A stretch of 61,294 nt of DNA, filler included, from Methanobacteriota archaeon (GTDB taxonomy: Archaea; JACRDV01): NCBI GenBank assembly GCA_024860865.1. It is 5 parts of 5 records of this genome, joined end to end, with 100 filler letters (N's around TTAATTAATTAA, not from the genome) between each part and the next. Parts side by side here need not be neighbours in the genome. Positions count along the whole stretch, not along the records: positions 1 to 16,712 come from JACRDV010000050.1; 4 more parts are not named here. One strand, written 5' to 3'. Every line of letters begins with the position of its first letter. The stretch's first letter is position 1. The notes beneath the pieces are model-generated. The model made no database searches, was not told the origin of the DNA, and saw nothing but the letters and a program-made list of their open reading frames with translations. A program made the translations under genes and the position numbers. Shown here piece by piece: positions 666 to 26,856 of the stretch.

Positions 666-1009
666 CAGTATTTTTTTTATTCTACTTGCAATAGTTATTA
701 GTGTGCTTGCTGTGTCAATGTATACTGCAAACTTAGAAAGCAAGCCATCCTAATTAGAATATACTTGCAAGGAGCGACTAAGCTTTTTATTTTGAAAAAA
801 TAGCTCCAAAGTGAAGAAAGCAGCTAAAATTTAATTTTTAAAATTTAAAAAATTGAAAGGGAATAAAACTGCCCAAATATAACTTTTACCCGATTAAACA
901 TTTAAATGGAATAATACCTAAAATAATAAGACTAATTTAGACCATTAATTTATATTTAATACTAAGGATGAATGCTACTTATTGTTGTTATACACATAAT
1001 GGTGATATA

Positions 1010-2869
1010 ATGCCAACCAGAGCAGCCTATAAACGTGGATATAAAGCCGGGAAATCGAAGGGAAAGGATACTACAGTCTGGTGCGAAGGTTGTGGAAGAA
1101 AGTTTCCCAGACATAAAGCCTTTTTAGGTCGCAAATCTTTCCGTATCTTCGATCCAGCCTTGAGCAGGATTATTGATAGAAGCCAGGTTGAAGTAGAGCA
1201 ATATAAGGTGTACTATTGCCCTAAATGCGCGAGGTATTTGGGAATTGTTGAGCCAAGCGGCAGAAGAGCTGAGATACGGGCAATTAAACCCATACTTGCA
1301 AAGTCTAGATTAACCGCTGGAGACATAGTTACATTTTATGTTCCTGAAATTCTATACCGAGGCGGATCCTACACTATTGGCGTTAGCGTCCGCAATAAAA
1401 GTGCGAGTCACGGCAGATTTGTAGTTTTACCGGGCACGATTATACATGGACTTGGTATATCTCCAAATGAAAAGAGGATATTTCTGAAAGCTGGTGGCTC
1501 TGATGCAGTGGCATTTGCGCTCCAAGTTAGGCCAGAAGCGCTAGAAAATGAAAGAGTGCCGATAAGTTTTAATCTAAAGAGTGAAGATGGGCGAATTTTT
1601 GACTCAAAGATAAAATACATTTCAATTAAAACTCCTGAAGTCATGCCAATTGAAGCAGTTAAGGAGATTACAATACTCAAGCAAATAGATAAAGCTGATA
1701 TTGAACTCAACAAAGTTGCGAATGTTACTTTGACTGCAGTAAATCCAGAAAATATTGAGTTAGTTAGCGTGGCAATTGCTGATCATATTCCTGAGATTTT
1801 TAAATTAGTTAATGGAAAAAACGTTTGGACTGGTAAGCTTAAGCCAGGCAAAAGCAAGCAAATTACATATAGAATTAAGGCAACAGCAGCCGGCGCATTT
1901 GAACTCCCACCAGCAGTTTTAACATATGAAGATGAAAAAGGAAACAAGAAAGAACTTAGATCAAAACCGATTAAAATCCAAGTTTCGCAACCACAGCCAA
2001 AAATAATTTTACCTACAATTTATGCGATGTATAATCCAGACGGGAAATTAACTTTAGTCAACCTTCAAAATATTGGGAGAGATTTAGCTAAAGAGGTTAA
2101 TGCTAAAATAATTTTAACACCACTTTCTGGAGAATTAATTGAAGCTGAAGGCAGAGCCCGTGCGCGCGACATTAGACCAGAAAGTTCACTTGAAATAAAA
2201 TTTGAACTTCCAGAACTAAAAGACTTATTTTATCCTTTTGAGTTAAAAGTTAATTACCAAAGTGAAGATGGAGTTCAATATTCAGAAGCATTTAATGGCT
2301 ATATGCTTTATGATATTTCAGCTAAGGTCTCTGCATATACTAAGTTTTTGCAAGGAGATAATGCTCAGCTCAAACCCTATGTAATGCTTAAAACTTCTGC
2401 TATTAAAGAAACAAATCAAATTGTTGAATCTTTTTATAAAGTCGTAACTGAAGGGACGGTGTATACCGAGACAACTGAAGGTATAGAACCCCAAGGATTA
2501 TTGATGCGAATCATATCACCACTAAAAAAGAGACCAGTTGCTTCTTGCTTTGATAGAAGTTTTCTGTTAGCGAGTTTATTAAATGCAAAAGGTCAGTCAG
2601 CTCGTGTAATTATGGGTTACATTTTGAATGGAAGATGGACCAAGCACGCTTGGGTTGAAGTGCACTATGGGAATAGATGGATACCGTTAGAAACAACTTT
2701 GAGCGCTAAAGAACTGCATAGACAGCTAACTAAGTCTGTATATGAAGATGGAAAGTATCTTCCAGTTATAGCCTTGCAAAGGGATGCATCGACTCAATGG
2801 AATCTAAAAACTAGATTTCACGAGAGATTTGAGGAATCAATAAAGAGACTTAAAAGTGAAATAAAATGA
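1010..2869 (+). CDS. Fusion: ribosomal protein eS26-like zinc domain + Ig-like beta-sandwich domains + transglutaminase-like domain
   Basis: ATG at 1010 follows a GGTGA SD. N-terminus MPTR...CEGCGRKFPRHKA...DPAL...YYCPKCARYLGIV matches the S26e pattern. The middle is beta-rich (BatD/CARDB-like). The C-terminus has SCFDRSFLLASLL...KHAWVEV...WIPLETT. Confidence 0.75.
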   Translation: MPTRAAYKRGYKAGKSKGKDTTVWCEGCGRKFPRHKAFLGRKSFRIFDPALSRIIDRSQVEVEQYKVYYCPKCARYLGIVEPSGRRAEIRAIKPILAKSRLTAGDIVTFYVPEILYRGGSYTIGVSVRNKSASHGRFVVLPGTIIHGLGISPNEKRIFLKAGGSDAVAFALQVRPEALENERVPISFNLKSEDGRIFDSKIKYISIKTPEVMPIEAVKEITILKQIDKADIELNKVANVTLTAVNPENIELVSVAIADHIPEIFKLVNGKNVWTGKLKPGKSKQITYRIKATAAGAFELPPAVLTYEDEKGNKKELRSKPIKIQVSQPQPKIILPTIYAMYNPDGKLTLVNLQNIGRDLAKEVNAKIILTPLSGELIEAEGRARARDIRPESSLEIKFELPELKDLFYPFELKVNYQSEDGVQYSEAFNGYMLYDISAKVSAYTKFLQGDNAQLKPYVMLKTSAIKETNQIVESFYKVVTEGTVYTETTEGIEPQGLLMRIISPLKKRPVASCFDRSFLLASLLNAKGQSARVIMGYILNGRWTKHAWVEVHYGNRWIPLETTLSAKELHRQLTKSVYEDGKYLPVIALQRDASTQWNLKTRFHERFEESIKRLKSEIK

Positions 2870-3408
2870 TTCCAGTTCGTGAAGTAATGACAAGACGCGT
2901 AGTTACGGTTAGGCTAGGAACAACTATTTCTGATGCTGCAAAGATTATGAGCGAACGCAGGGTTGGAGGAGTTATAGTTTTAGAAGATAAAATTCCAGTT
3001 GGTATTGTAACTGAGCGCGATATTTTGCTTCATATAGTAGCTCCTGGAAAGAATCCAAATAAAATTCGAGTTAAAGAGATAATGTCTTCTCCGGTTATTA
3101 CAATTGACAAAGAAACTGACATTAACGAAGCAGCAAAACTAATGAAAAAAGCAGAAATTCGAAGACTACCTGTTGTAGAGCGAGGAAAGCTTGTTGGCAT
3201 TGTAACTTCAGCTGACATAATGGCAGTGACTCCAGCTCTAAATGAAATTTTGCTCGAAATGATTAAAACAAAGGCTGATATCGAACCAAAATCAGAAGAA
3301 ATAAAAGGTCCAGGAATTTGCGAAAATTGCGGGAGCTATGTTGAATCATTAGATGAAGTTGATGGCAAGTGGGTTTGCGAAGATTGTAGAGAGGAATTGG
3401 TAGGATAG
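2866..3408 (+). CDS. CBS-pair protein with C-terminal zinc ribbon
   Basis: Two CBS repeats (VGIVTERDI, LVGIVTSADI) and GICENCG...VCEDCRE. Confidence 0.9.
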   Translation: MIPVREVMTRRVVTVRLGTTISDAAKIMSERRVGGVIVLEDKIPVGIVTERDILLHIVAPGKNPNKIRVKEIMSSPVITIDKETDINEAAKLMKKAEIRRLPVVERGKLVGIVTSADIMAVTPALNEILLEMIKTKADIEPKSEEIKGPGICENCGSYVESLDEVDGKWVCEDCREELVG

Positions 3409-4804: not shown

Positions 4805-4999
4805 TTGAGAGTAGCTGGAATTTGTGCTATTTGTGGAAAGGTAGTGCAATCTTTTAATACTTGTATGCTTTGTGGTCGGAATGTTTGTAACGAATGTTTT
4901 AATTATATCACTGGAACTTGTAAGAGGTGTGTTCCCGTTCACCAACAAAGAAAAGAAGAAATAAAAAACCAGGATGAGCATCCATACGCTAATTTTTAA
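4805..4999 (+). CDS. Small Cys-rich zinc-finger protein
   Basis: Four CxxC motifs in 64 aa, TTG start after a GGTGA SD, directly upstream of cdc48. Confidence 0.7.
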
Positions 5000-5022: not shown

Positions 5023-7314
5023 TTGAGGGATAGTTTGGCAGAAGAAATTCAACTTCGAGTTGCTGAAGCACTGCAGCCAGATGTTGGAAAAGGTATAATC
5101 CGAATTGATAAGAAGTCACGTGATGAAATTGGGGTTAAGACAGGGGAAATAATTGAGATAACTGGTAAAAGAACCACAGGAGCCATTGTTGGAGAAGCTC
5201 AACCCGCGGACGTTGGATTGAGTATTATCCGAATGGATGGTTTAACCAGAGCGAATGCAGGCACTAGCATCGGCGAGATTATTGCGATTAAAAAAGCAGA
5301 TGTAAAAGAAGCGAAAAAGATTGTACTAGCACCAGCGATGAAAGGCGTTCATATAGTGGTTCCTGGTGATTTGCTTCTTCGCAACCTAATGGGTCGAGTT
5401 GTAGCTAGGGGCGATATAGTAATGCCGATTAGCCCAAGGCGAACTCGCGAGACGTATAGAGAGTTTGCCCCCTCATTTTTTGAAGATTTTTTTGGGGAAG
5501 GTTTCGAATTTGGCCCAATGCCTTTTGCCCTTGGTGAGATTAAATTTACAGTAGTTTCAACTTCACCAAGCGGAATTGTTCGGATTACAGATATGACAGA
5601 AATTGAAGTTCATCCAGAAGCAGTTGAAGTAGTTGAAAAGAAAGTTCCTGAAGTCAGCTATGAGGACATAGGCGGCATGAAAGAAGAAATTCGAAGAGTA
5701 AGGGAAATGATTGAGCTGCCCCTCCGCCATCCAGAATTGTTTGATAGGCTTGGAATCGAGCCTCCTAAAGGAGTTTTGCTGCATGGACCGCCAGGCACAG
5801 GCAAAACTCTGATTGCCAAAGCATTAGCCAACGAGTCTGAAGCTCATTTCATTTCAATTGCGGGTCCAGAGATTATGTCAAAATATTATGGCGAGTCCGA
5901 GCAGAGACTTCGAGAAGTTTTTAAAGAGGCTGAAGAAAGTGCTCCCAGCATAATATTTCTTGATGAGATCGATTCAATTGCACCAAGGCGAGAAGAAGTT
6001 ACTGGAGAAGTTGAGCGAAGAGTTGTTGCGCAGTTGCTATCTCTAATGGACGGTTTAAAAGAGCGCGGGCAAGTTATTGTTATAGGAGCAACAAATCGGC
6101 TTGATGCAGTCGATCCTGCTCTTCGAAGGCCTGGAAGGTTCGACCGTGAGATTGAGTTAAGAGTGCCTGACAGAGAAGGGAGAAAAGAGATAATTCAAAT
6201 TCACACTAGATCAATGCCGTTAACCGATGATGTTAGCCTTGATGAGCTATCAAATATCACTCATGGTTTCGTTGGAGCTGACTTAGCAGCTCTCTGTCGT
6301 GAAGCAGCAATGATTACTCTTCGCAGAGTTTTACCCGAGATAGATTTTAAACAGAAAGTAATTCCTAAAGAGGTAATTGAGAAACTTATAGTTACAAAGC
6401 AAGACTTCATGGAAGCTTTGAAAGGCATTGGACCATCGGCACTTCGCGAAGTTCTAGTTGAAGTACCAAATGTGCACTGGGAGGACATAGGAGGTCTTGA
6501 AAGTGTAAAACAAGCGCTAAGAGAAGCTGTTGAATGGCCTCTAAAATATCCAGACGCTTTTAGAAAAATTGGAGTGCGCGCACCTAAAGGGATTTTATTG
6601 TTTGGGCCACCTGGAACTGGAAAAACTATGCTTGTAAAGGCTGTTGCCACAGAAAGCGAAGCGAATTTTATTTCAGTTAAAGGCAGCGAATTATTGAGCA
6701 AATGGTTTGGGGAAACTGAAAAACGAATTTCTGAAGTTTTTAAAAAGGCCAAACAAACGGCTCCCACTGTGGTCTTTTTCGATGAAATGGACGCTATTGC
6801 TCCTATGCGTGGAACATCAGTTGGTGAACCCAGGGTGGTAGAGCGTATGGTAAACACGCTTCTCTCAGAAATGGATGGCCTAGAAGAACTCCGTGGAGTT
6901 GTGGTAATTGGAGCTACTAACCGGCCTGACATAGTTGATCCGGCTTTATTGCGACCAGGTCGATTCGATGAGTTAATCTTAGCACACGCTCCAGATAGAC
7001 GGGCACGTTTAGAAATATTTAAGGTTCATATGAAAGGAATGTCTTTAGCTGAAGATGTTGATTCAGAGAAGTTTGCTAACGTGACTGAAGGATATACCGG
7101 GGCTGATATAGCCGCTGTTTGCCGTAAGGCAGGTATGCTAGCGCTCCGTGAGGATATTAAATCGGAAAAGGTTTATATGCGACATTTCGAAGAAGCATTG
7201 AAGAAAGTTGGCCCCTCATTGACCACAGAGTTAGTAAGATGGTATGAACGTCTTGGAAAAGATATTGAACGAGGAAAACCCAGGAAGCGAGAAGAAGCAG
7301 TTGAAGTATATTGA
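5023..7314 (+). CDS. cdc48: CDC48/VCP family AAA ATPase
   Basis: N-domain plus two AAA modules (GPPGTGKT twice, [14 protein letters not shown]). Confidence 0.97.
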
Positions 7315-7317
7315 GGA

Positions 7318-8064
7318 TTGTTGATGGTAGAAGATATAGATCGCGTGAGAACTGGTGTACCCGGATTGGATGATATTTTAAATGGCGGATACCCCAAAGG
7401 TTTAGTAATTTTAATCTCTGGCGGAGCCGGAACCGGCAAAAGTATCTACGGTATCCAATTTTTATACACAGGTATTACCAAGTACGAGGAAAATGGCATT
7501 TTGGTGGCTGTTGAGGAGCGACCGCGAGACATCCGGCGTTACATGCTTGGGTTTGGCTGGGATCTTAAAAAACTTGAAGATCAAAATAAGCTCGCAATCA
7601 TAGATGCCTCAGCTGCGAGGCTTGGAATTCCTAGCGGAGAAAAGTATGTGGAGATGCGGCCTTTTGAGCTCGATTCTTTAATAACTACAATCAATAAGAT
7701 AGTAGAAAAAATGAATGCGAAACGCTTAGTAATCGATTCTATTCCATCCCTCTTTTTACAATTTGAACATGAGCTAGCTATACGAAGAGAAATTCTTAGA
7801 CTCGGAAGTCTTGTAGCTGAAACTGGTTGTACAACCATTTTGACGACTGAAGTGGAAGCAGGAGAGAGCAGGCTCAGCAAATTTGGGGTTGAGGAATTCA
7901 TCTGCCAAGGACTTATTCAGTTATTCATGAGGGAACGCGGAAACGAAATGAAGAGAAGTTTAGTAGTTCGGAAGATGAGAGGAACTAAGCATAGTACGCG
8001 AAGATATCCCTTTGACATCACACCAAGTGGAATTGCTGTATTTCCGGGCGAAGAGGTTTATTAG
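7318..8064 (+). CDS. KaiC-like RecA-superfamily ATPase
   Basis: TGVPGLDDILNGG, GGAGTGKS, RLVIDSI, KMRGTKHS. Confidence 0.9.
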   Translation: MLMVEDIDRVRTGVPGLDDILNGGYPKGLVILISGGAGTGKSIYGIQFLYTGITKYEENGILVAVEERPRDIRRYMLGFGWDLKKLEDQNKLAIIDASAARLGIPSGEKYVEMRPFELDSLITTINKIVEKMNAKRLVIDSIPSLFLQFEHELAIRREILRLGSLVAETGCTTILTTEVEAGESRLSKFGVEEFICQGLIQLFMRERGNEMKRSLVVRKMRGTKHSTRRYPFDITPSGIAVFPGEEVY

Positions 8065-8144: not shown

Positions 8145-9026
8145 TTGGGAATTCTAATGAAAATTGGTCTGATAACTTGGAAAGTTGACGAAAAAAACTA
8201 TTATGCTATCTCTCGTTTAAAAAAAAGTATTCAGAAGTTTAGAGCGCGACCAATTCAGATTGATTTATCGAATGTTTTGCTTGGAATTACTTCCTCACTT
8301 GAATTCTATAATAAGTCAGAAAAAATTGATCGAATAGATGTTGCTCTAGCCAGAATTACTGCACGAGATTTTTTTGTTATAGATGCACTCAAAAAACTTG
8401 AAGCTCAAAAGACCATAGTGATAAACCAAGCTCAAGTTTTTGAGAAAGCGTACGACAAATTTAGGACTAGTTTAGCCTTAAAGCAAGCAGGATTGCCAAT
8501 CCCCAAAACATATCTCACTAGGAGTTATGAGCAAGCCGTGGAAGCAATAAAAAAAATTGGAACACCTGTTGTATTTAAGCCAACCACTGGCGCTGGAGGT
8601 CAAGGTATTGTTAAAGCTCAAATTTTTGAGGATGCCTGTTCAATTGCTGAGATTTTGGCTAACATAGAGTCTCCGCTTTATATACAAGAGTTGATTCCAA
8701 CCGACCGAGACATTCGAACATTTGTTATTGGAGATGAAGTAATTTCTGCCATTTATCGAGTTGCTGCAAAAAGTTGGAAGACAAGTATCAGCCAAGGAGG
8801 TCGAGCTGAACTTTGCCCATTAACTGATGAACTGACAAACCTCAGCATTAAGGCTGCTAAAGCAATAGGTGCTGAAATTGCAGGGATAGATTTGATTGAA
8901 AGCAAAGATGGATATAAAATTTTAGAAGTGAATACGAGCCCCGGCTTCAGAGGAATCATCAAAGCAACAAAAATCAATCCATCTGATGCAATCGTTAAAT
9001 ACGCCATTTCAAGGGCTAAAAAATAG
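8145..9026 (+). CDS. RimK/LysX-family ATP-grasp ligase
   Basis: VFKP...G.GG.G, YIQE, DIRTFVIG, GIDL, LEVN.SPG. Confidence 0.9.
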   Translation: MGILMKIGLITWKVDEKNYYAISRLKKSIQKFRARPIQIDLSNVLLGITSSLEFYNKSEKIDRIDVALARITARDFFVIDALKKLEAQKTIVINQAQVFEKAYDKFRTSLALKQAGLPIPKTYLTRSYEQAVEAIKKIGTPVVFKPTTGAGGQGIVKAQIFEDACSIAEILANIESPLYIQELIPTDRDIRTFVIGDEVISAIYRVAAKSWKTSISQGGRAELCPLTDELTNLSIKAAKAIGAEIAGIDLIESKDGYKILEVNTSPGFRGIIKATKINPSDAIVKYAISRAKK

Positions 9027-9499: not shown

Positions 9500-10606
9500 T
9501 TAGATTGTTAGGAAATCTATCCCTGAACTAACTTGCCTACCGCTTGGACTCCATCCTTCGTGGGCAGATGGACTATGACCAAGAAGTTGCTTAGAATGAA
9601 CGCCTGTCATGATAACCATTATGCGAATCGTGCCTTCAAGGTCTTCTTGTATTCTTGCTCCCCAGATGACATTGGCATTTGGATCAAGCTCTTGAGTCAC
9701 TAATTCACCAATTTTGTTTGCTTCACCAAGGGTTAGATCAGGTCCACCGCTTATGTGAAGAAGTGCACCAACAGCTCCTTGGTAGTCAACATCTAGCAAT
9801 GGACAGTTCATAGCGTCTTTAACCACAGCCTCAACCCGGTTTTGAGCGTTAGATTCTCCAATTCCTATGCTCGAGACTCCACCGCCGCTCATTATTGCTT
9901 TCACATCGGCGTAGTCAAGATTTATTAGACTGGGAATGGTCACTGTTTCAGTTATACCTTTTACCGCTTGAGAAATAATTTCGTCAGCTACACTGAATGC
10001 CTGATCTAGTGGCAAATGGGGTACAAATTGGACTAATCTATTGTTATCAATTACAACTACAGTGTCTGCTGCTTTTCTCAGTTTTTCGATGCCCTCATCC
10101 GCTTTCTTTAGTCTAGCTCGCTCAATCGCGAAGGGATATGTTACCATTCCAATAACAATGCTGCCCATTTGTTTTGCAATCTCTGCAACAACTGGAGCTG
10201 ATCCTGTTCCTGTACCACCTCCCATACCGGCGGTTATAAAGACCATGTCAGCATCTTTCAGTAGCTCTTCAAAAGCTGGTCGTGCAAGTTCAGCCGCCTT
10301 TGCTCCAACCTCTGGATATCCACCAGCACCGAGTCCGCGAGTTAAGTTTTTGCCTATAAGGACTTTTTTATCAGCTTTAACAACATCAAGATGAACTTTA
10401 TCTGTATTGACTGCAATTAGATCTGCACCTTGGACACCTATCTTTGCTAATCGGTTGATTGTATTATTGCCACCTCCACCGCATCCGATGACAACAATCC
10501 TTGGAGTTCCGAAAAGTTCTGGCTCTTGGTCTCCAACACTTACGTCAGCTCTCTTCAATGCATCCTCATGTGCATGAGCCAATGCTTCTTCAATTATTGA
10601 TTTCAT
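9500..10606 (-). CDS. ftsZ: Cell division protein FtsZ (FtsZ2-like)
   Basis: [22 protein letters not shown]; preceded by a GGAGG SD. Confidence 0.97.
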
Positions 10607-11643: not shown

Positions 11644-11956
11644 GGCGGCGAGCTAGGCTGGGCGGCTACCCCTCGCCTCTACGCAAATGGGGTTATGGCG
11701 GGTCGAAGTTCGGGAGGCAGCATTACCAGCCAGTTATGCCCCAAATTTACGACGATGAAATTCTGTCCCACAGGGTTCGTTGTGGCAGAATGCGGGAGGG
11801 AGCTCCTGTGTTACTGCCTTTATCTGCTTAACCAGCTAGGCCTGGAAAGGAGCAACTGTAGGTGGAAGATGGACGCTTGTGGGGAAGCAGGGTAGAGCTC
11901 GGGTTTGGGAGCCATAATTGGAAAAGGGATGTTCACTTCCGTGCGCGCTCGCCGCC
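11644..11956 (+). ncRNA. ffs: SRP (7S) RNA
   Basis: GC-rich 313 nt with a 10-bp terminal helix GGCGGCGAGC/GCTCGCCGCC and the helix-8 motif AGGCCTGGAAAGGAGCA. Confidence 0.92.
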
Positions 11957-13728: not shown

Positions 13729-15392
13729 CCTAAGTTTGCCCCATTTTTACACTAGGTTTCAAAATTTAATGTGATTTTTAAATAAGCCTTTCTGCCCTAC
13801 AAAGCCCTTTTAAAACGAATTCTGAACTAAAAAATCAAAAGAAAAATGTTATAAATCAATATAGTGTAATATTTACACTATGCCTTTTGTAAGGAAAATC
13901 AAAACAAAAAGTGGAACATACCTTGTAGAAGTAGAAAACACTTGGCAAAATGGAAAAGTAATTCAAAAGCACATAAGGATGGTCGGAAAGGTTACGGATA
14001 AAGGAATTGTTTACAACGAGCTGGAAAGGTCTGAGGTAAAAAAAGTTCTCTCGCATGCAAATGTTCTTGCACTTCACAAAATTGCAAGCGATATCGGAAT
14101 TGAAGATATTTTAGGAGAAAATTCAAAACAAATTTTAGCTTTAGCATATGCCCACTGCATAGAGCCAAGAAGCATAAATTCAATGAAAATTCTTTTGAGA
14201 AAAGCAAACATTGAAGAAATAATTGGAGAAGAAATCACACCAAAAAAACTTAGGGATGCTGTTCAATCAATTGGTGAAAAAGATCTATTCAAAATTGAGA
14301 TGAAGCTTTTTGAAAGGATTCAAAGTTTTTATTCAGAAATTAATTCAATTGTATACGATGTTACAAGAATTTACTTTTACGGAACTAAGTGCAAGCTAGC
14401 AAAGCCTGGCTATAATCCAAGGCACGCCTTTATTCCTCAAATAAACATAAGCCTCGCTGTAACAATGGAGCATTCATTTCCAATTTTTCACGATGTTTTT
14501 CCTGGCAATGTATACGACTCAAAGACTTTGCTTAGCTTTTTGGCAAAGCTGAACATGCTTGGGATTAGAAACAAGACGCTAATAATAGACAGAGGATCAT
14601 ACTCTGAAGAAAACGTTGGAAATGCCTTGGAAAGCGGATTTGAAGTAATTGCTGGAGTTCCCTTAAGAGGAGAGATGAAAGAAATTGCGAGAGAATTTAA
14701 GGAAAAAATTGCAGATGCAAAAAACAGGCTCAGCCTTAAAACAGTTTCAATCTATGCAAAAGAAATAAGGATTAAAAATAGGAAATTTGTAGTTTGTTTA
14801 AATGAAGAAGATAGAACATCAAGGAGGGAAGCAAGGAGGCTTGAAATAGATCAGGCGATTGAAAGGCTGAGCTCTGGCCTTCCAATAAAAGAGGGAATAA
14901 AAAAGTATTTGATAAAAACAAAAGAAGGATTTGAAATAAACTACGATAGATTAAGGGAAGCAGAAGAATTCGATGGGATATATCTCATTCTTTCCACAAA
15001 AGAAATTTCAAAAGGAGAAATTGTAAAAGCATATTTTGAAAAGGATAAAATAGAAAAGGCTTTTCGCTGCCTGAAAAGCGTGGTGGAAGTTGCTCCTGTA
15101 AGGCACAGGATTTGCAGCAATGTTTATGCTCACATTTTCATATGCTATCTTGCTTACCTTCTCCTCTCTCTTTTTGAGTATAAGCTTGAAAAAGCAGGCC
15201 TTTCTATAAATGGAAGAAAACTGACTGCAAAGAGAGCACTTGAGGAGCTTGAGACAGTTTATAAGGTAGAGATAGAAGATCCAATTACTAAAAGATCATT
15301 TTCAAAAATTATAACCTTAAATAAGTTGCAGGAAAAAATTTTAAGGGCTCTAAAAATTAAATTGCATAGTGTAAAAACAGGGCAAACTTAGG
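13729..15392 (+). mobile_element. IS1634-family insertion sequence, complete
   Basis: 26-bp TIRs (CCTAAGTTTGCCCCATTTTTACACTA; the right copy has 2 mismatches) flanked by direct repeat TAAATCA at 13722-13728 and 15393-15399. Confidence 0.92.
13880..15391 (+). CDS. IS1634-family DDE transposase
   Basis: MPFVRKIK..GTY..EVE N-terminus, YDVTRIYFYG, IIDRG, IEKAFRCLKS, VYAHIFICYLAY. Confidence 0.92.
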   Translation: MPFVRKIKTKSGTYLVEVENTWQNGKVIQKHIRMVGKVTDKGIVYNELERSEVKKVLSHANVLALHKIASDIGIEDILGENSKQILALAYAHCIEPRSINSMKILLRKANIEEIIGEEITPKKLRDAVQSIGEKDLFKIEMKLFERIQSFYSEINSIVYDVTRIYFYGTKCKLAKPGYNPRHAFIPQINISLAVTMEHSFPIFHDVFPGNVYDSKTLLSFLAKLNMLGIRNKTLIIDRGSYSEENVGNALESGFEVIAGVPLRGEMKEIAREFKEKIADAKNRLSLKTVSIYAKEIRIKNRKFVVCLNEEDRTSRREARRLEIDQAIERLSSGLPIKEGIKKYLIKTKEGFEINYDRLREAEEFDGIYLILSTKEISKGEIVKAYFEKDKIEKAFRCLKSVVEVAPVRHRICSNVYAHIFICYLAYLLLSLFEYKLEKAGLSINGRKLTAKRALEELETVYKVEIEDPITKRSFSKIITLNKLQEKILRALKIKLHSVKTGQT

Positions 15393-15407
15393 TAAATCAG
15401 TATATGC

Positions 15408-15480
15408 GGGCCCGTGGTCTAGGGGTTATGACACCTCGTTGACACCGAGGAGGTCGCCGGTTCGAATCCGGCAGGGCCCA
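15408..15480 (+). tRNA. tRNA-Val(GAC)
   Basis: CCTCG-TTGACAC-CGAGG anticodon arm and GCCGG-TTCGAAT-CCGGC T-arm. The acceptor stem has one G.A mismatch. Confidence 0.9.
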
Positions 15481-15542
15481 CTTTTGCCGTTATTAAGGCA
15501 ACCTCGGACACCCAAAATTATAACCATTATAACTATGACACC

Positions 15543-16391
15543 TTGTTTTGCGAAGAGAGGCTTAAAGAGTTTGTTAAGTGGCTTGAGGTCAACGAAAACA
15601 AAGCTCCGATTACCGTTTATAGGTACAAGAACCTCATAATGAAGATAATTAAAAGCAATATTCCAATCCACGAATACATAGAGAATTTCAAAAGAACGCA
15701 CCATCCAAATGGCTATAAGAACTTGTTGAAGGCATTACGAAATTATGCCAAGTTTCTAAAAAACAAAGAATTTGAAGAATTTGTTAAAGGGTTTAGGTTC
15801 CCGAGCGTTCCTTTCCAATACGAGATTTTGCCTTCAAAGGAAGAAATTATCAAATTTTACAACGAGATTAGAGATTCTCAACTAAAAGCAATTTTCCTAA
15901 TGTTGATTTCGAGCGGATTGAGGATAAACGAGCTTCTTGGCATTAGGGCAAAAGACATCGTTTTCAAAAGGAGAATAATTAACGCTTCTTTAATTCACAA
16001 TGGCACGACCAAGTTTTCCTATATCGCATTTTTCAACGAAGAAGCCGAAAAATCCTTGAAAGAATACTTGAACGGCATAAAATTGGATGCCGATTCTAGG
16101 ATTTTCACAGTGAAAGCAAGAAATGTTCAAGAGCTTTTCAATGAAATCTCAAAAAGATTAGGGATTAAAATAACTCCAAAGACCTTGAGAAAGATTTTCA
16201 CCAACGAGTTAGGGAGAAAGAGGATACCCGATAGGTTCATAGATGCTTTTTGTGGAAGAATACCAAATTCGACCATTGCAAAACATTATAGCGATTTTAG
16301 CCCGGAAAACTTGAAACAAATCTACGATGGAGCCGATTTAAAGGTTCTTAGTCGTACGATAGTCGAACACAACGGCGTTGTTTACGGATAA
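15543..16391 (+). CDS. SSV1-type tyrosine integrase, int(C) portion
   Basis: SGLRINEL, PKTLRK (KxxR variant), CGR, KHYS. The frame stays open upstream through the tRNA 3' half (EVAGSNPAGPT). Confidence 0.85.
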   Translation: MFCEERLKEFVKWLEVNENKAPITVYRYKNLIMKIIKSNIPIHEYIENFKRTHHPNGYKNLLKALRNYAKFLKNKEFEEFVKGFRFPSVPFQYEILPSKEEIIKFYNEIRDSQLKAIFLMLISSGLRINELLGIRAKDIVFKRRIINASLIHNGTTKFSYIAFFNEEAEKSLKEYLNGIKLDADSRIFTVKARNVQELFNEISKRLGIKITPKTLRKIFTNELGRKRIPDRFIDAFCGRIPNSTIAKHYSDFSPENLKQIYDGADLKVLSRTIVEHNGVVYG

Positions 16392-22030: not shown

Positions 22031-22777
22031 TTGCGAAAACATAATATTACGCTTGAAGTGAGCAACTTAACCAAGAAATATAATGATTTTATAGCCATCG
22101 ATCATGTGAATTTTACGGTTTTTAATGGCGAATTTTTAGGTTTATTAGGTCCCAACGGTGCTGGAAAAACCACATTGGTAAAGATCATTTCAGCAGCAAT
22201 CAAACCATCAGAAGGCATAATCACAATTAACGGTCATAAAATCCATGAAGAACCTGGAGAAGTTAAAAAATCAATAGGTGTTGTGTCTCATAATTCTTAT
22301 TTATATGAAGAACTAACTGCTTATGAAAATCTCGAATTCTTTGGCAAAATTTACGGCATCCCAAGCAAAGAATTGGATGAGCACATTAAATGGGCTCTCG
22401 AAAGTGTAAACTTGCAACATCGCTCTCATGATGCAGTATCTACTTTTTCCCGCGGAATGAAACAAAGGTTATCAATTGCAAGAGCAATGATACATCATCC
22501 TAAACTGTTAATTCTCGATGAACCTACTGTTGGTTTAGATCTTCAGAGCAAAAACATATTTTATGATTTAATCAAAGAAATCAACAAATCTGGGAGCACT
22601 ATCTTTCTAACCACCCACTATATACTTGAAGCCGAAACTCTTTGTGATAGAATAATTATCCTCTCAAGGGGAAAAGTTGTACTTGAAGGTAAAGTCACTT
22701 CTATTAAAGAGCAATATCCCAATATGACATTTGAAGACATATATCTTGAAGTTACAAAATCAGGAGCAAAGCTGTAG
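22031..22777 (+). CDS. ccmA: Heme exporter ATPase CcmA
   Basis: GPNGAGKTT, FSRGMKQR, LDEP; first gene of the ccm cluster. Confidence 0.85.
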   Translation: MRKHNITLEVSNLTKKYNDFIAIDHVNFTVFNGEFLGLLGPNGAGKTTLVKIISAAIKPSEGIITINGHKIHEEPGEVKKSIGVVSHNSYLYEELTAYENLEFFGKIYGIPSKELDEHIKWALESVNLQHRSHDAVSTFSRGMKQRLSIARAMIHHPKLLILDEPTVGLDLQSKNIFYDLIKEINKSGSTIFLTTHYILEAETLCDRIIILSRGKVVLEGKVTSIKEQYPNMTFEDIYLEVTKSGAKL

Positions 22778-23452
22778 TTGATAAATGAAATTTTAATCGT
22801 TGCATCAAAAGATTTACGAGTGGAATTTAGATCTAAAAGCACAATCAATTCAATGGTATTATTTGCGATGATAACCATCATAATATTTAGCTTTGGTTTG
22901 GGTCCATTTCCACCTTATATTGGAGAAGTAGGCCCAGGTTTATTATGGTTAGTGTTTCTATTTACAGGCATGTTAGGATTTGCTAGAACATTTGTTCATG
23001 AAAAAGAAATGGGAACATTTGAAGGGCTTAAAATCTCCCCCTTAAGCACTCTTTCAATTCTCATTGGAAAAGCTATCTTTAATTTTACATTAATGTTGAT
23101 AGTAGAAATTTTAGCATTCCCGCTCTTTCTTGTAATGACCGGTTATAATGTAAAAGGAAGCTTAGTATTAGCATTTTTTTTAATTGTACTCGGCACTATA
23201 GGTTTTGTTATCATCGGGTCTATGATGTCTGCGCTTATAATCAACGCTAGAACTCGAGAAATGCTTCTACCAATTATTACATTTCCGTTGGCAGTTCCAC
23301 TAGTTATTGCTGCAACACTATCGCTCAAAAAAGTTTTAGCAGATGGTTCAGGCTTTAGTGAAGTTTTTGTAGAAGTTGAGTTTATGTTTATATACATTGT
23401 GATAATGAGTATAGTATCTATGCTAACGTTTGATTACGCTGTTGAAGAGTGA
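22778..23452 (+). CDS. ccmB: Heme exporter permease CcmB
   Basis: KDLRVEFR, E.E.GT.EGL, LLPII.FPL.VP, six TM helices. Confidence 0.9.
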   Translation: MINEILIVASKDLRVEFRSKSTINSMVLFAMITIIIFSFGLGPFPPYIGEVGPGLLWLVFLFTGMLGFARTFVHEKEMGTFEGLKISPLSTLSILIGKAIFNFTLMLIVEILAFPLFLVMTGYNVKGSLVLAFFLIVLGTIGFVIIGSMMSALIINARTREMLLPIITFPLAVPLVIAATLSLKKVLADGSGFSEVFVEVEFMFIYIVIMSIVSMLTFDYAVEE

Positions 23453-24186
23453 TTTCTGCAAGAACAATGGGTGATATAGTGAAACTCGAAAGAAAATATG
23501 CGTTCCTACTACTTTGCGCTTTGTATGTAATAATTCTAATTGGCATGTATGAAGCACTAATAGTTTTAGGGCCACTTAGCCCAGAATCCTTGAGGTGGAT
23601 AGGAGACCCAATGGAGCAAGGTTACAGGATATTTTTTTTCTCAATGCCAAATGCTGCTGTGGTTTATCTTGCATTTTTTGTTATACTAATAGCTAGCATA
23701 ATGTATCTAAGAGATAGACAAATTAGGTGGGATTTAATAGCATCGGGCTCTGCCAAACTCGGTTTAGTGTTTTGCACAATTCTCTTAATCACAGGGTCAA
23801 TATTTTCTAACCTAGCATGGGGTGCATATTGGAACTGGGATCCTCAACAAACAGCGGCACTTGTGCTTTGGTTTATACTCGCTGGCTACCTTTCTTTACG
23901 CTCAGCTATTGAAGACGACGAGGCGAGAGCAAGACTTTCAGCCATATTTGGCATATTTGGATTTTTAGGTGTTCCCTTAAGCTATGTTTCTGCGGTGATT
24001 TGGTCATCTATCCATCCACGATTTGCGACTGGTTTCAGCTTAGATCCCTTAGGTAAATTAGTTACAATAATCATAGTACTTGGCCTTCTCATACTTTTTG
24101 CTTACTTACTTTGGCTCGAAGTTAGCGCCAAAAAACTAGAAAAGGAGTACCAAAGGCTACTGTCTAAAGCTAAGAGAGAGGAGTAA
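23449..24186 (+). CDS. ccmC: Cytochrome c biogenesis protein CcmC
   Basis: WWD motif WGAYWNWDP and SIHP; the first His motif is altered (see findings). Confidence 0.88.
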   Translation: MISARTMGDIVKLERKYAFLLLCALYVIILIGMYEALIVLGPLSPESLRWIGDPMEQGYRIFFFSMPNAAVVYLAFFVILIASIMYLRDRQIRWDLIASGSAKLGLVFCTILLITGSIFSNLAWGAYWNWDPQQTAALVLWFILAGYLSLRSAIEDDEARARLSAIFGIFGFLGVPLSYVSAVIWSSIHPRFATGFSLDPLGKLVTIIIVLGLLILFAYLLWLEVSAKKLEKEYQRLLSKAKREE

Positions 24187-24276
24187 GTATTTGTTAAGTT
24201 AGAATATAACAATTTTCACGATAAAAAACGAATTTTGGAAAAGTTATTTAAATCATATAAAAAATAATAGTTTTCT

Positions 24277-24414
24277 ATGCCTGAGTTTGAGAGCATTCTA
24301 GCAGTAGCAATAATACTGTGGTCTGGTTTAATATTATATGCGATATATTTGGACTCAAGAGTTAGAGATTTGGCCAAAAAAATATCGAATTTGGAAAAAA
24401 TGTTTGAGAAATGA
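24277..24414 (+). CDS. ccmD: CcmD-like small membrane protein
   Basis: 45 aa (MPEFESILAVAIILWSGLIIYAIYLDSRVRDLAKKI...) with one TM and a charged tail, between ccmC and ccmE. Not in the ORF track. Confidence 0.75.
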   Translation: MPEFESILAVAIILWSGLILYAIYLDSRVRDLAKKISNLEKMFEK

Positions 24415-24437
24415 AGTCAGTGACAATTATGGTTAAG

Positions 24438-24833
24438 ATGAGTAAAAACTTAAAAATTGGAATTGGTATTTTGTTAATTGCAGTGTGCATTGCAATTGGA
24501 TATAGCACTGTCTTCAAATTTTTTAATCCATACCATTTTGTCAGCAACTTAACTGCAAATCCAGATCAATATATGAACAAACAAGTGCAAGTAATAGGGG
24601 TTGTAGTTCCGGGCACTATTGAACTGGCTTCTGGTACCTTGAAATTTGATATCACAGATGGTAACTCAAGAATAAAAGTTGCATATGGCGGATCTCCTGT
24701 TCCAATAAGAGAGAGTATAAATGTTGTTGTTATTGGATCACTTATATCCCCAACTCAATTTCAAGCTACAAAAATTCTAACCCAATGTCCATCAAAGTAT
24801 GAACAAACATTAAGCGCTGCTAATAAGACTTAA
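24438..24833 (+). CDS. ccmE: Heme chaperone CcmE, CxxxY type
   Basis: N-terminal TM, OB-fold-like body, ILTQCPSKY (System I* variant). Confidence 0.9.
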   Translation: MSKNLKIGIGILLIAVCIAIGYSTVFKFFNPYHFVSNLTANPDQYMNKQVQVIGVVVPGTIELASGTLKFDITDGNSRIKVAYGGSPVPIRESINVVVIGSLISPTQFQATKILTQCPSKYEQTLSAANKT

Positions 24834-24870
24834 ACAGGCAACCACATGCTACTTTTTTAAATTTTAGGAT

Positions 24871-26856
24871 TTGATAAGAATGACATTAGGGTCTATACTA
24901 TTAATAATAAGCTGGCTTGCTGGTTTTGCATCGTTAGCTTTGCTATTTCTGCTAGATTTGCGTTTTAATGAATACTTGAAAGATAAAACAATAAATTATA
25001 TGATTGAAAGTTTAAAAAATAAATATACAATTTCAATTCGCGCATACACTTTGTTATTAACATCATGTTCTATTCTTCTTTTCAACGCATTTTTATACTC
25101 AGATTTTTCACTTGCGTATGTATTTGAATACAGCAGCTCAGAACTTTTATGGTTTTATAAAATTTCAGCATTCTGGGCAGGAACATCTGGCTCTCTTTTA
25201 TTATGGGCATGGTTGATTTCTCTATTCATTTGGTGGTGGAGTGAAAAAGTAGACTTTAATTCCCAATTTGTTAGAAGAACTACAATTTTTTCAATAATAA
25301 TTGGATTATTTTTCTTAACAATAACGCTGGTTGATTCGCCCTTTAGATCAATCACAGGCTCGGTCCTAGAAAATCTCTGGCGTGCCGGAGTTGATGGGAT
25401 GGGGCTAAACCCTTTGCTTCGTGACCCCTGGATGGTTATTCACCCTCCAATTTTATTCGTTGGATATGCTGCGATAACGCTACCTGCTGCTGCGGCTATT
25501 GCGTATCTAATTAATCCCGATGAAAGTTGGGAAAAACTTACGCGGCAATGGTCTAGAATTGCTTGGATATTCTTGATGGCTGGCATTGCTATTGGCGGAT
25601 TTTGGTCGTATAAGGTATTAGGGTGGGGTGGATTCTGGGCCTGGGATCCAGTTGAAACTACTTCATTCATCCCATGGCTTACGATGACGGCATTTTTACA
25701 CGGAACGGTTCAATACCGCAAGAATAGAAAGTTTAATTTCATAACTCCGCTTTTAGGAATCGTATCACTTCTATTAGTTGTATATGCTACGTTTGTTACT
25801 AGAAGTGGAATTCATGAATCCTTCCATTCTTTTGGCGAAAGTGCTACATCACCATTTTTCTTGATATTTATAGCAGCTGTAATTATTGCAACAATAGCGT
25901 CTGCTATCCGATTTATAAGCAAACAAATAAAATTGACTGGCGAAGAAAGTATTTCGCTACTCTCTAAACAAAATTTAATTTTACTTACAATTATCGCATT
26001 TGTTATGTTAACATTCATATCTTTATGGGGAACAACCTATCCAGTAATTTATGAGATCTTAACAGGCATGAAAATTTCAATTGAAAAATCATTTTTTAAC
26101 TTTTGGAGCCTTCCATTCACTATTATATTGTTTTTAACTATGTGGGCATGCATGTTATTTGGTTTCCTTAAAGAAGGTCTATTAGTAAAAACTTTAATGT
26201 TGTTAATTGCGGCCACAGTAGGTTCTATACTTATCAAACCTACTGAAAATTTCTATGCTAATGCCTTGTTACCCTCAGCATTTCTAGTAATTGGCGGGGT
26301 TATATTTGGGCTATTAAAAATTATTAAAACTCCAAGAAGTTTTGCTAGATCTATTAAATTAATCTCTCCTTATGTGATTCATTTAGGAGTTGCATTTATA
26401 ATAATTGGTATTGTGGTGAGCACGGCATTTCAAAAAGAGATTTTTGAGAAATTTAACATCGGCGAAAATAAAGAAATCGGTCGAGAATACGGTCTGAGTG
26501 TAACTAATATTAGCGCGTATGTTAATTGGCAAGATTTTACTTGGGCACAAAAAACTGATTTATTTTTAAATAAAAACGGTGTTAGAGTTGGAGAAGGTAA
26601 CCCATTAATCTATTATAATTTAAGACCAATGCTGTGGGGGGGCGAGTCAGAGGGTCCCTTCGCAAAAGTATACATCCATCGCACTCTGCTCTTCGATATT
26701 TACGTAGCTTTCGAAGGTGTAGGCTCAGAAGAGGAAATTGAACAAGGTATCCCGTTGAGAATTAAAATGTTTCCACTAGTTAATTTTCTATGGTTTGGGG
26801 TCATACTTGTATCATTAGGTGGAGCGCTGTTGATAATTTCAGAGCCAAAAAAGTAA
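24871..26856 (+). CDS. ccmF: Cytochrome c heme lyase CcmF
   Basis: GLNPLL, HPP, WGGFWAWDPVE, TRSG..SFHSF. Confidence 0.95.
   Translation: MIRMTLGSILLIISWLAGFASLALLFLLDLRFNEYLKDKTINYMIESLKNKYTISIRAYTLLLTSCSILLFNAFLYSDFSLAYVFEYSSSELLWFYKISAFWAGTSGSLLLWAWLISLFIWWWSEKVDFNSQFVRRTTIFSIIIGLFFLTITLVDSPFRSITGSVLENLWRAGVDGMGLNPLLRDPWMVIHPPILFVGYAAITLPAAAAIAYLINPDESWEKLTRQWSRIAWIFLMAGIAIGGFWSYKVLGWGGFWAWDPVETTSFIPWLTMTAFLHGTVQYRKNRKFNFITPLLGIVSLLLVVYATFVTRSGIHESFHSFGESATSPFFLIFIAAVIIATIASAIRFISKQIKLTGEESISLLSKQNLILLTIIAFVMLTFISLWGTTYPVIYEILTGMKISIEKSFFNFWSLPFTIILFLTMWACMLFGFLKEGLLVKTLMLLIAATVGSILIKPTENFYANALLPSAFLVIGGVIFGLLKIIKTPRSFARSIKLISPYVIHLGVAFIIIGIVVSTAFQKEIFEKFNIGENKEIGREYGLSVTNISAYVNWQDFTWAQKTDLFLNKNGVRVGEGNPLIYYNLRPMLWGGESEGPFAKVYIHRTLLFDIYVAFEGVGSEEEIEQGIPLRIKMFPLVNFLWFGVILVSLGGALLIISEPKK

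Follow-up and report, generated by a model that had tools for sequence, protein, structure and literature searches.

A divergent eS26-like module fused to immunoglobulin-like and transglutaminase-like domains in an uncultivated archaeal lineage

The window analysed here is a 61,294-nt stretch of DNA from a groundwater metagenome-assembled genome (MAG) of a Methanobacteriota archaeon (GCA_024860865.1). Near its start it carries a gene for a protein of 619 amino acids (aa), P0001, in which a homologue of the ribosomal protein eS26 is followed in the same frame by immunoglobulin (Ig)-like domains and a transglutaminase (TGase)-like domain. The fusion is real and not an assembly artefact, and relatives of P0001 were found in other assemblies. 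These share a conserved core that consists of the eS26 module, a linker and two Ig-like domains, Ig1 and Ig2. The parts of P0001 belong to known families; the eS26/Ig/TGase combination was new to us.

Domain architecture of P0001

The region 968..2869 on the plus strand is a single open frame without interruption, and translation from ATG 1010 gives the 619-aa protein. We take ATG 1010 as the start because the homologues share an N-terminus of the form MP..(A)PYKRG, because a Shine-Dalgarno (SD)-like GGTGAT is found at 1001-1006, and because a related strain, X2, has 1-nt and 4-nt deletions at 968 and 994 that break the frame of the upstream ATG 968. As these deletions are frame breaking, 949..1009 is regarded as non-coding, and we infer a promoter role for the TATA-like TTTATATTTAA in this region. 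In brief, P0001 begins with an eS26-like zinc ribbon, which a basic, disordered linker connects to three Ig-like beta-sandwiches, and ends with a transglutaminase-like core. The features are as follows, where pLDDT is the predicted local distance difference test score of the model and pI is the isoelectric point.

949..1009, plus strand: upstream region with the AT-rich, TATA-like TTTATATTTAA (949-959) and the SD-like GGTGAT (1001-1006), read from the sequence
1010-2869, plus strand: fused gene eS26/Ig/TGase (P0001), open frame translated from ATG 1010
1010..1264, plus strand: eS26-like zinc-ribbon module, residues 1-85 (NF006816 match, PDB eS26 chains, pLDDT 75-94 for residues 21-80)
1082-1084, 1091-1093, 1217-1219 and 1226-1228, plus strand: predicted Zn ligands Cys25, Cys28, Cys70 and Cys73, respectively, read from the sequence
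1265..1309, plus strand: basic disordered linker, residues 86-100 (pLDDT <50 for residues 86-99; pI 11.7)
1310..1645, plus strand: Ig1, an MG/CARDB/HAP2-domain-3-like beta-sandwich, residues 101-212 (pLDDT 89-98 for residues 101-210; pI 9.35)
1646..2005, plus strand: Ig2, of BatD/DUF11 type, residues 213-332 (Pfam BatD; pLDDT 95-98 for residues 221-330; pI 9.44)
2006..2314, plus strand: third Ig-like domain (Ig3), acidic (pI 4.6), residues 333-435 with approximate boundaries (weak model, alignment with P0007)
2315..2494, plus strand: connecting region, residues 436-495, partly helical (a low-confidence model has a helix at 469-481; in the alignment the region falls on the N-terminal part of the small TGase-like protein P0085)
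2495..2869, plus strand: transglutaminase-like core and C-terminal helices, residues 496-619, plus the stop codon (Pfam Transglut_core)
2546-2548, 2645-2647 and 2690-2692, plus strand: Cys513, His546 and Glu561, respectively, in the transglutaminase-like core (aligned to P0085 and P0125)

The N-terminal module carries the sequences C25EGCGRKFPRHKA, D48PAL and Y69CPKCARYLGIV. The NCBIfam S26e model (NF006816) matches residues 8-83 with an E-value of 4.2e-10; the match covers model positions 7-83 of 96, and no other family fits the module better. A phmmer search of the PDB listed 41 matches, 40 of which are eS26 chains, and the best two are archaeal (9e71_BX, E 4.5e-7; the second, E 7.6e-5). The four cysteines of the zinc ribbon, Cys25, Cys28, Cys70 and Cys73, are invariant in 25 stand-alone and four fused sequences. 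Of 28 columns that are conserved to at least 75% in the 25 stand-alone sequences, the four fused modules retain 25, 25, 26 and 26, with 25 in the window protein. We regard the N-terminus as truly homologous to eS26 but divergent, and do not class it as an equivalog, because its bit scores lie below the curated cut-offs, as detailed in the last section.

Stand-alone archaeal eS26, as in Saccharolobus solfataricus (PDB 9fs6_b, 9e71_BX), has the same basic N-terminal arm, CxxC...CxxC, PR.KA and YC..CA..GI. These proteins are 95-100 aa long and end about 10-15 residues past the ribbon, whereas P0001 runs for 530 residues more. With 619 aa in the window protein and 319 and 325 aa in its complete relatives in two MAGs, G002 and G001, the fused proteins are far outside the size of about 90-120 aa of a small stand-alone eS26. 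In the alignment, the linker starts where the stand-alone relatives end.

An AlphaFold2 (AF2) model of residues 1-340, built from an alignment of 35 rows, has a mean pLDDT of 87.7. Its predicted template modelling score (pTM) of 0.47 is consistent with independent domains, and separate domains joined by a disordered linker at residues 86-99 fit a tethered extension. With VIA-align, the modelled Ig1 matched HAP2 domain 3 (Z 14.1, rmsd 1.8 over 101 residues), a C3 MG domain (Z 13.2) and CARDB 3idu (Z 10.2). The Ig2 model is all-beta and fell among DUF11/pilin-type domains (Z 12.3 to the pilin BcpA). Foldseek against the PDB gave generic tandem beta-sandwich matches only (TM 0.21-0.27), and the folds of Ig1 and Ig2 are generic. 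Ig2 is also recognized by the Pfam family BatD (PF13584; residues 226-325, 30.6 bits, gathering threshold 24.1), while its DUF11 score (PF01345) of 17.1 bits is below the cut-off of 24.6. The eS26 part falls outside the VIA list, and its fold is assigned from the sequence. The same is true of the structures of Ig3 and the TGase domain, as a single-sequence AF2 model of full-length P0001 was poor (pLDDT 38.6). In that model Ig3 has beta-strands at 338-433 with pLDDT 50-70, and it aligns with the third domain of the relative P0007.

The Pfam family Transglut_core (PF01841) matches residues 498-561 (E 2.6e-8, 34.5 bits, gathering threshold 23), and the core carries the motifs S512CFD, H546AWVE and W557IPLETT. 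In alignments with the TGase relatives P0085 and P0125, their catalytic Cys and His are matched by Cys513 and His546. Glu561, in the third place of the triad, lines up with Asp in P0085 and with Glu in P0125. The TGase-fold domain is therefore described here as carrying a putative Cys-His-Glu triad. P0001 has five cysteines, the four Zn ligands and Cys513, which is the only one outside the ribbon. In a feature search, the clusters nearest to the TGase part were archaeal Transglut_core/DUF553 proteins of 140-197 aa. The C-terminal 125 aa of P0001 belong to the same family as these small proteins, but have Glu561 instead of Asp, as P0125 also has, and are attached to an eS26 module and Ig domains. 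TGase-fold domains in prokaryotes are widely predicted to be cysteine proteases.

P0001 has a basic N-terminus and no hydrophobic segment, the highest 19-residue Kyte-Doolittle mean being 1.29. We did not see a signal peptide or membrane segment by hydropathy, a dedicated signal-peptide predictor not having been run, and the protein looks cytoplasmic. A preliminary description, made from the sequence alone, had reported the eS26-like N-terminus, the in-frame run into beta-sandwich domains, the Cys/His/acidic core with Glu in place of Asp and the lack of a signal peptide. This domain reading was correct: the profile check of the N-terminus gave a significant match to S26e, although below the curated cut-offs, and the single open frame, the Ig models and the Transglut_core match bear out the rest. 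Every motif that it listed is present in the translation. Its interpretation of the protein is partly supported, as described below; the three roles that it proposed, a ribosome-tethered enzyme, a self-cleaving precursor and a co-opted zinc domain, are still the candidates.

Fused and stand-alone relatives

The window is made of five contigs of a bin strung together, and the fused gene lies well inside contig 1 (1-16712). Logan contigs of four runs were mapped onto positions 900-3000; one of the runs, X1, is probably the source sample. A 3664-nt contig from run X2, which belongs to a different study, spans 900-2624 with 23 substitutions relative to the window. Within the open reading frame the only indel of X2 is a single in-frame AGG after 1014, which adds a residue exactly where P0001 runs one residue short of its relatives; the other indels are all upstream of 1010. 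Twelve of the substitutions are synonymous, and 11 nucleotide changes alter 9 codons without creating a stop. At the junction, where the preliminary description had proposed a check of the reads, the X2 contig shows neither a stop nor a frameshift.

With HMMER, 286 proteins at E <= 1e-3 were obtained from 1.84 billion representatives, and 150 of these were listed. Among the 150 listed matches, three continue from the eS26 module into the same Ig1. P0002 (216 aa) is 51% identical to P0001 and comes from a contig of 939 nt, so that its ends are uncertain. P0003 (319 aa, 30% identity) is the product of a complete gene in G002 (locus L002). P0007 (388 aa) is without the N-terminal half of the eS26 module; its contig is 1752 nt long and its ends are likewise uncertain. 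A complete 325-aa orthologue of P0003 is encoded at locus L001 in G001, a MAG labelled Candidatus Hydrothermarchaeota, and the L002 gene is also present, as far as the sequence was shown, on a metagenome contig (L012). The extended eS26 is thus carried by the groundwater MAG of the window, the two MAGs G001 and G002 and two short metagenomic contigs. Since the independent X2 contig and relatives from other assemblies span the same junction, the fusion is not a product of the assembly.

Ig1 is conserved in P0002, P0003, P0007 and the L001 protein, and the alignment has invariant columns in both the eS26 and the Ig parts. The core of the family is eS26, linker, Ig1 and Ig2, and the architecture of the extension varies from two Ig domains to three Ig domains to three Ig domains and a TGase domain. 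The fused genes of G001 and G002 end with stop codons inside long contigs, after eS26, Ig1 and Ig2, and have no TGase domain. P0007 appears to add a third Ig domain, and the TGase domain was seen in the window protein only. The preliminary description had proposed to look for the same fusion in relatives; it is present there for the eS26 and Ig parts, in G001, G002, P0002 and P0007, but not of the TGase domain, which is absent from the two complete genes. When G001 and G002 were searched with the TGase part of the window protein, the single match was a weak one in G002 (E 0.0012), and G001 had none. P0001 itself is a singleton at 90% clustering among proteins of near length. In a word-indexed protein search, the whole of P0001 and its residues 430-619 each matched only the query itself, and residues 1-215 searched against shorter proteins matched P0002 only.

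Between G001 and G002, the nonsynonymous substitution rate (dN) is 0.016 in the eS26 module, 0.030 in Ig1 and 0.116 in Ig2, with ratios to the synonymous rate (dN/dS) of 0.028, 0.036 and 0.109, respectively. The equivalent of the linker evolves fastest, with a saturated dN of 0.37. For comparison, dN between the same genomes is 0.04 for uS11 (98% identity over a core of 130 aa), 0.082 for uS4, 0.118 for uS13, 0.124 for RpoD and 0.12-0.16 for the neighbours of the fused gene. Conservation of the eS26 module and of Ig1 is thus as tight as that of core ribosomal proteins, and purifying selection acts on the whole fusion. In a domain tree of 32 sequences, the fused modules do not sit on long branches (0 to 0.57; the median is 0.33). 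The tree does not decide between one and several origins of the fusion; a single origin is argued for by the Ig1 common to the fused proteins. We did not find a separate homologue of Ig1 in the 38 other genomes searched, and it occurs mainly in fused proteins. For Ig2, both G001 and G002 encode paralogues (24-31% identity), which suggests that it was recruited from the organism's own DUF11 repertoire.

In the parts of the literature available to us, eS26 is described as restricted to eukaryotes and to TACK and Asgard archaea (PMC11698992, PMC7531240, PMC3082918, PMC12993045), also in reviews up to 2026, and it serves as a marker that ties these archaea to eukaryotes. The preliminary description had likewise called eS26 typical of TACK and Asgard archaea and not of Euryarchaeota. 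The reviews agree with this as far as they could be consulted, but the databases do not. Eighteen of the 150 listed matches are proteins of 67-124 aa that match residues 1-101 only, at 36-51% identity. The clusters of two of them hold WP_012940130 of Archaeoglobus profundus, annotated as "eS26 family ribosomal protein", and Q8TZ16 of Methanopyrus kandleri, named "Zn-ribbon containing protein" and assigned to S26e by IMG; these are among the stand-alone proteins with 40-51% identity to the N-terminus of P0001. It should be noted that both names are source annotations, on which the ribosomal nature of these proteins rests. Further stand-alone genes are found in MAGs labelled Methanobacteriota, Methanopyri and Aenigmatarchaeota. 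According to the databases, eS26 does not appear to be confined to TACK and Asgard archaea.

The stand-alone proteins of this euryarchaeal/DPANN type have no extension and share with the fused modules 25-26 of the 28 conserved columns. We considered that the module could be an imported TACK gene and rejected this, as its closest relatives are euryarchaeal-type stand-alone proteins of the eS26 family. Their presence in Archaeoglobus, Methanopyrus and related MAGs argues for a local, euryarchaeal-type eS26. A literature search gave no description of an eS26 fused with a transglutaminase, nor of any euryarchaeal or fused eS26, in the parts of the sources that were accessible; the supplements of PMC3353972 and PMC11698992 may list euryarchaeal S26e.

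The distribution of eS26 was also followed in a sample of 40 genomes, with the window module as query. In G001 and G002 the fused gene is the sole eS26-like match, and with the family model the result for these two is the same. Matches in short open frames (88-226 aa) were obtained in 16 of the 38 other genomes; the weaker ones may be other types of eS26. Models of eS25 and eS30, run against G001-G005 at E <= 0.01, gave only a weak eS25 match in G003 (E 2.5e-4, below the cut-off).

Stand-alone genes of the eS26 family, for proteins of 87-124 aa, were noted at loci L003-L009 and L020-L027 and in the protein clusters of P0013 and P0021. Four of these loci, which come from different genomes, have a gene for a T2SSE/PilB3-like ATPase of 490-612 aa immediately after the eS26-like one, at 4294-6129 in L003, 4246-6006 in L009, 1769-3238 in L022 and 2-1708 in L026. 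L009, L024 and L025 have a gene for a KaiC-like ATPase close to the eS26-like one, and the window encodes such an ATPase too.

Genomic surroundings in the window

No gene is common to the window locus and the G001 and G002 loci in the neighbourhood comparison. The other features of the window are listed here.

2866..3408, plus strand: gene for a CBS-pair protein with a C-terminal CxxC...CxxC zinc ribbon, downstream of the fused gene, its ATG overlapping the TGA of the fused gene (ATGA)
4805-4999: open reading frame of 64 aa, Cys-rich, upstream of the CDC48-like ATPase gene
5023-7314: CDC48-like ATPase gene
7318-8064: KaiC-like ATPase
8145-9026: RimK-like ATP-grasp gene
9500-10606, minus strand: FtsZ, 66% identical to FtsZ of G001 and G002
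11646-11954, plus strand: archaeal signal recognition particle (SRP) RNA, 157 bits
12535-13080: multihaem c-type cytochrome
13880-15391: DDE transposase, end of contig 1
15408-15480: tRNA, end of contig 1
15543-16391: tyrosine integrase, end of contig 1
16713-16812, 32554-32653, 41344-41443 and 50446-50545: joints of the window, each with two runs of 44 N, 12 bases apart
22031-26856: cytochrome c maturation set (ABC ATPase, CcmB, CcmC-like, CcmF)

The ATGA overlap suggests that the CBS-pair gene is probably co-transcribed with the fused gene. It is not conserved beside the fused genes of G001 and G002, and for this reason its membership of the unit is doubtful. Bacterial RimK adds glutamates to ribosomal protein bS6. 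The RimK-like gene of the window lies 5 kb downstream of the fused gene on the same contig; no link between the two is shown.

The FtsZ of the window is 53-55% identical to that of three genomes with stand-alone eS26 genes. The higher identity to FtsZ of G001 and G002, together with the archaeal SRP RNA, confirms an archaeal origin related to the G001/G002 lineage. The transposase, tRNA and integrase at 13880-16391 are probably an integrated element at a tRNA gene. The multihaem cytochrome and the maturation set were seen in an archaeal bin. Since the window joins five contigs of one bin, gene order across a joint cannot be taken as a sign of linkage.

Possible role of the fused protein

eS26 is located at the mRNA exit channel of the ribosome. 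Its C-terminus points to the solvent, and C-terminal tags on yeast Rps26 are tolerated. Our leading explanation, offered tentatively, is that P0001 is the lineage's own eS26, a cytoplasmic protein that docks on the 30S subunit together with its extension. This reading is favoured by the homology of residues 1-85 to eS26, the stand-alone relatives annotated as eS26, the sole match in both genomes with a complete fused gene, the retained family columns, the low dN of the module and Ig1, the tethered domains of the AF2 model and the cytoplasmic character of a protein whose basic Ig1 and Ig2 would suit contact with nucleic acids. The module would retain the role of a stand-alone eS26 and bind the 30S platform on its mRNA exit side, near the 3' end of the 16S rRNA, with the extension hanging on the platform side. 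The Ig domains, and in the window lineage the TGase-like enzyme, would be displayed on or recruited to the small subunit, where they may act on or bind nearby ribosomal or mRNA-associated components.

It is also possible, if rather doubtful, that the only eS26 of a small uncultivated clade of euryarchaeal grade is a protein of 320-620 aa. The 30S subunits of this clade would then carry two or three Ig domains at the mRNA exit and, in the window lineage, a TGase-fold enzyme with a Cys-His-Glu triad. Such a protein would combine, in a prokaryote, a ribosomal role with a catalytic domain of its own, which could modify, cleave or cross-link partners associated with the ribosome or the mRNA, or control the use of the exit channel.

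Instead of being a permanent subunit, a bulky eS26 could regulate the use of the exit channel. Such a role is conceivable because the eS26 of S. solfataricus is loosely bound and incompatible with the SD:anti-SD duplex, as stated in the accessible part of PMC11698992.

Several observations weigh against docking on the ribosome. NF006816, which is a crenarchaeal equivalog model, gives the module 39.8 bits against a cut-off of 118. The Pfam family Ribosomal_S26e (PF01283) matches residues 13-83 of the whole protein with E 0.0047 and 17.8 bits; for the isolated 100-aa module it is the best Pfam family with 22.1 bits, and both scores are below the gathering threshold of 27. The changes G43S and R75K are found in three of the four fused modules, at positions that are invariant in all 25 stand-alone sequences. 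Among the eS26-like genes compared, we found no translation-related neighbourhood. No eS26-like match was obtained in 22 of the 40 sampled genomes; archaea in this part of the tree can then do without eS26, and a copy that persists could be freed for another role. No second eS26 copy was found in a scan restricted to the 61,294-nt window, which is not the whole genome, and the sole-match result for G001 and G002 comes without completeness figures for the two MAGs. The SD-like GGTGAT of the fused gene would make permanent occupancy by eS26 awkward. Finally, proteins homologous to the Ig and TGase parts are typically found at the cell surface, either secreted or anchored in the membrane.

A competing explanation is that the zinc ribbon was co-opted, off the ribosome, as an RNA- or protein-binding domain heading a cytoplasmic Ig/TGase-like protease, deamidase or scaffold. 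The patchy distribution of eS26, the two substitutions, the scores under the curated cut-offs, the lack of a translation-linked neighbourhood and the varying extension all agree with such a change of role, as does the view of the reviews, in their accessible parts, that eS26 is absent from Euryarchaeota. A domain released from the ribosome would, however, be expected to drift, and the module keeps 25-26 of the 28 family-conserved columns, evolves as slowly as uS11 (dN 0.016) and is the sole eS26-like sequence in G001 and G002. It should also be noted that the stand-alone close relatives score low as well, with 23.8-42.9 bits for NF006816 and 17.5-36.3 bits for Pfam; of seven tested, two pass the Pfam threshold of 27 bits and none passes 118. 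A predicted complex of the eS26 module and uS11 of G001 had a score of 0.02 and gives no verdict either way. We consider co-option unlikely on balance, though it is the strongest of the competing explanations.

A ribosomal-protein precursor, cut in the linker to free an eS26 of normal size and leaving an Ig part that acts as a chaperone or has a function of its own, is improbable. The linker would be a suitable site, as it is disordered, basic and fast-evolving and begins where the stand-alone relatives end. In the window lineage the TGase-fold domain, with Cys513, His546 and Glu561 in place, could make the cut in cis; such domains of prokaryotes are, as noted, widely predicted to be cysteine proteases. 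The complete genes of G001 and G002, however, end after two Ig domains, so that self-cleavage by a TGase domain cannot account for the family as a whole, and the search of these genomes with the TGase part gave at most the one weak match reported above. Moreover, Ig1 is conserved like eS26, with a dN/dS of 0.036, which suggests a joint function and not a disposable pro-part. Small zinc-binding or basic ribosomal proteins in frame with an unrelated folded domain are known from the eukaryotic Ub-eS31, Ub-eL40 and FUBI-eS30. In these precursors the extra domain is N-terminal, ubiquitin-like and cleaved off, whereas the extension of P0001 is C-terminal and Ig/TGase-like.

Another possibility is that the Ig and TGase domains act outside the cell, the basic N-terminus being an unusual export or anchor signal that resembles eS26. 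The known relatives are what makes this worth considering. P0004, P0010 and P0012, which are related to the Ig part, have signal peptides, DUF11 repeats and C-terminal membrane anchors, and P0085 and P0125, related to the TGase part, look secreted or membrane-bound. P0001 shares with the archaeal DUF11/BatD/CARDB surface proteins the BatD match of Ig2 and the folds (Z 10-14), and 125 of the matches listed are of Ig type. These surface proteins are acidic and have signal peptides and anchors, whereas Ig1 and Ig2 of P0001 have a pI above 9 and no signal or anchor was seen. Ig1 is basic in all five fused proteins (pI 8.9-9.4), and Ig2 has a pI of 9.1-9.4 in the window protein, the L001 protein and P0003, and of 5.0 in P0007. 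For comparison, whole-protein pI has a median of 5.19 among the 129 listed matches of at least 170 aa without the full eS26 motif (125 of Ig type, three of TGase type and the N-truncated P0007), and exceeds 8.5 in 10% of them. The TGase domain of P0001 also has a pI above 9, and the clusters nearest to it are small proteins of 140-197 aa. With no hydrophobic stretch, and with an N-terminus that is truly homologous to eS26 and has a zinc site of four Cys, P0001 is very improbable as a surface or secreted protein.

The idea that two genes, one for eS26 and one for an Ig/TGase protein, were merged by an assembly or sequencing error could draw on the singleton status of P0001 and the five-contig scaffold, but is effectively refuted by the position of the gene inside contig 1, by the X2 contig, which crosses 900-2624 without a frameshift or stop, and by the divergent relatives that share the junction in other assemblies.

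Whichever role the protein has, an eS26 module has here become part of a much larger protein that is strongly conserved and combines it with Ig-like domains and, in one case, with an enzyme domain. The locus touches an active question, namely the role and distribution of eS26 in archaea, and suggests that Archaeoglobus, Methanopyrus, DPANN MAGs and the window lineage have a divergent eS26 family, on which the reviews, in their accessible parts, are silent. If the module does not dock on the 30S subunit, the family would be a clean case of a ribosomal protein recruited to a new job. If it does dock, it would be a rare natural ribosomal protein with folded accessory and catalytic domains, and would offer a handle on the decoration or regulation of the archaeal exit channel.

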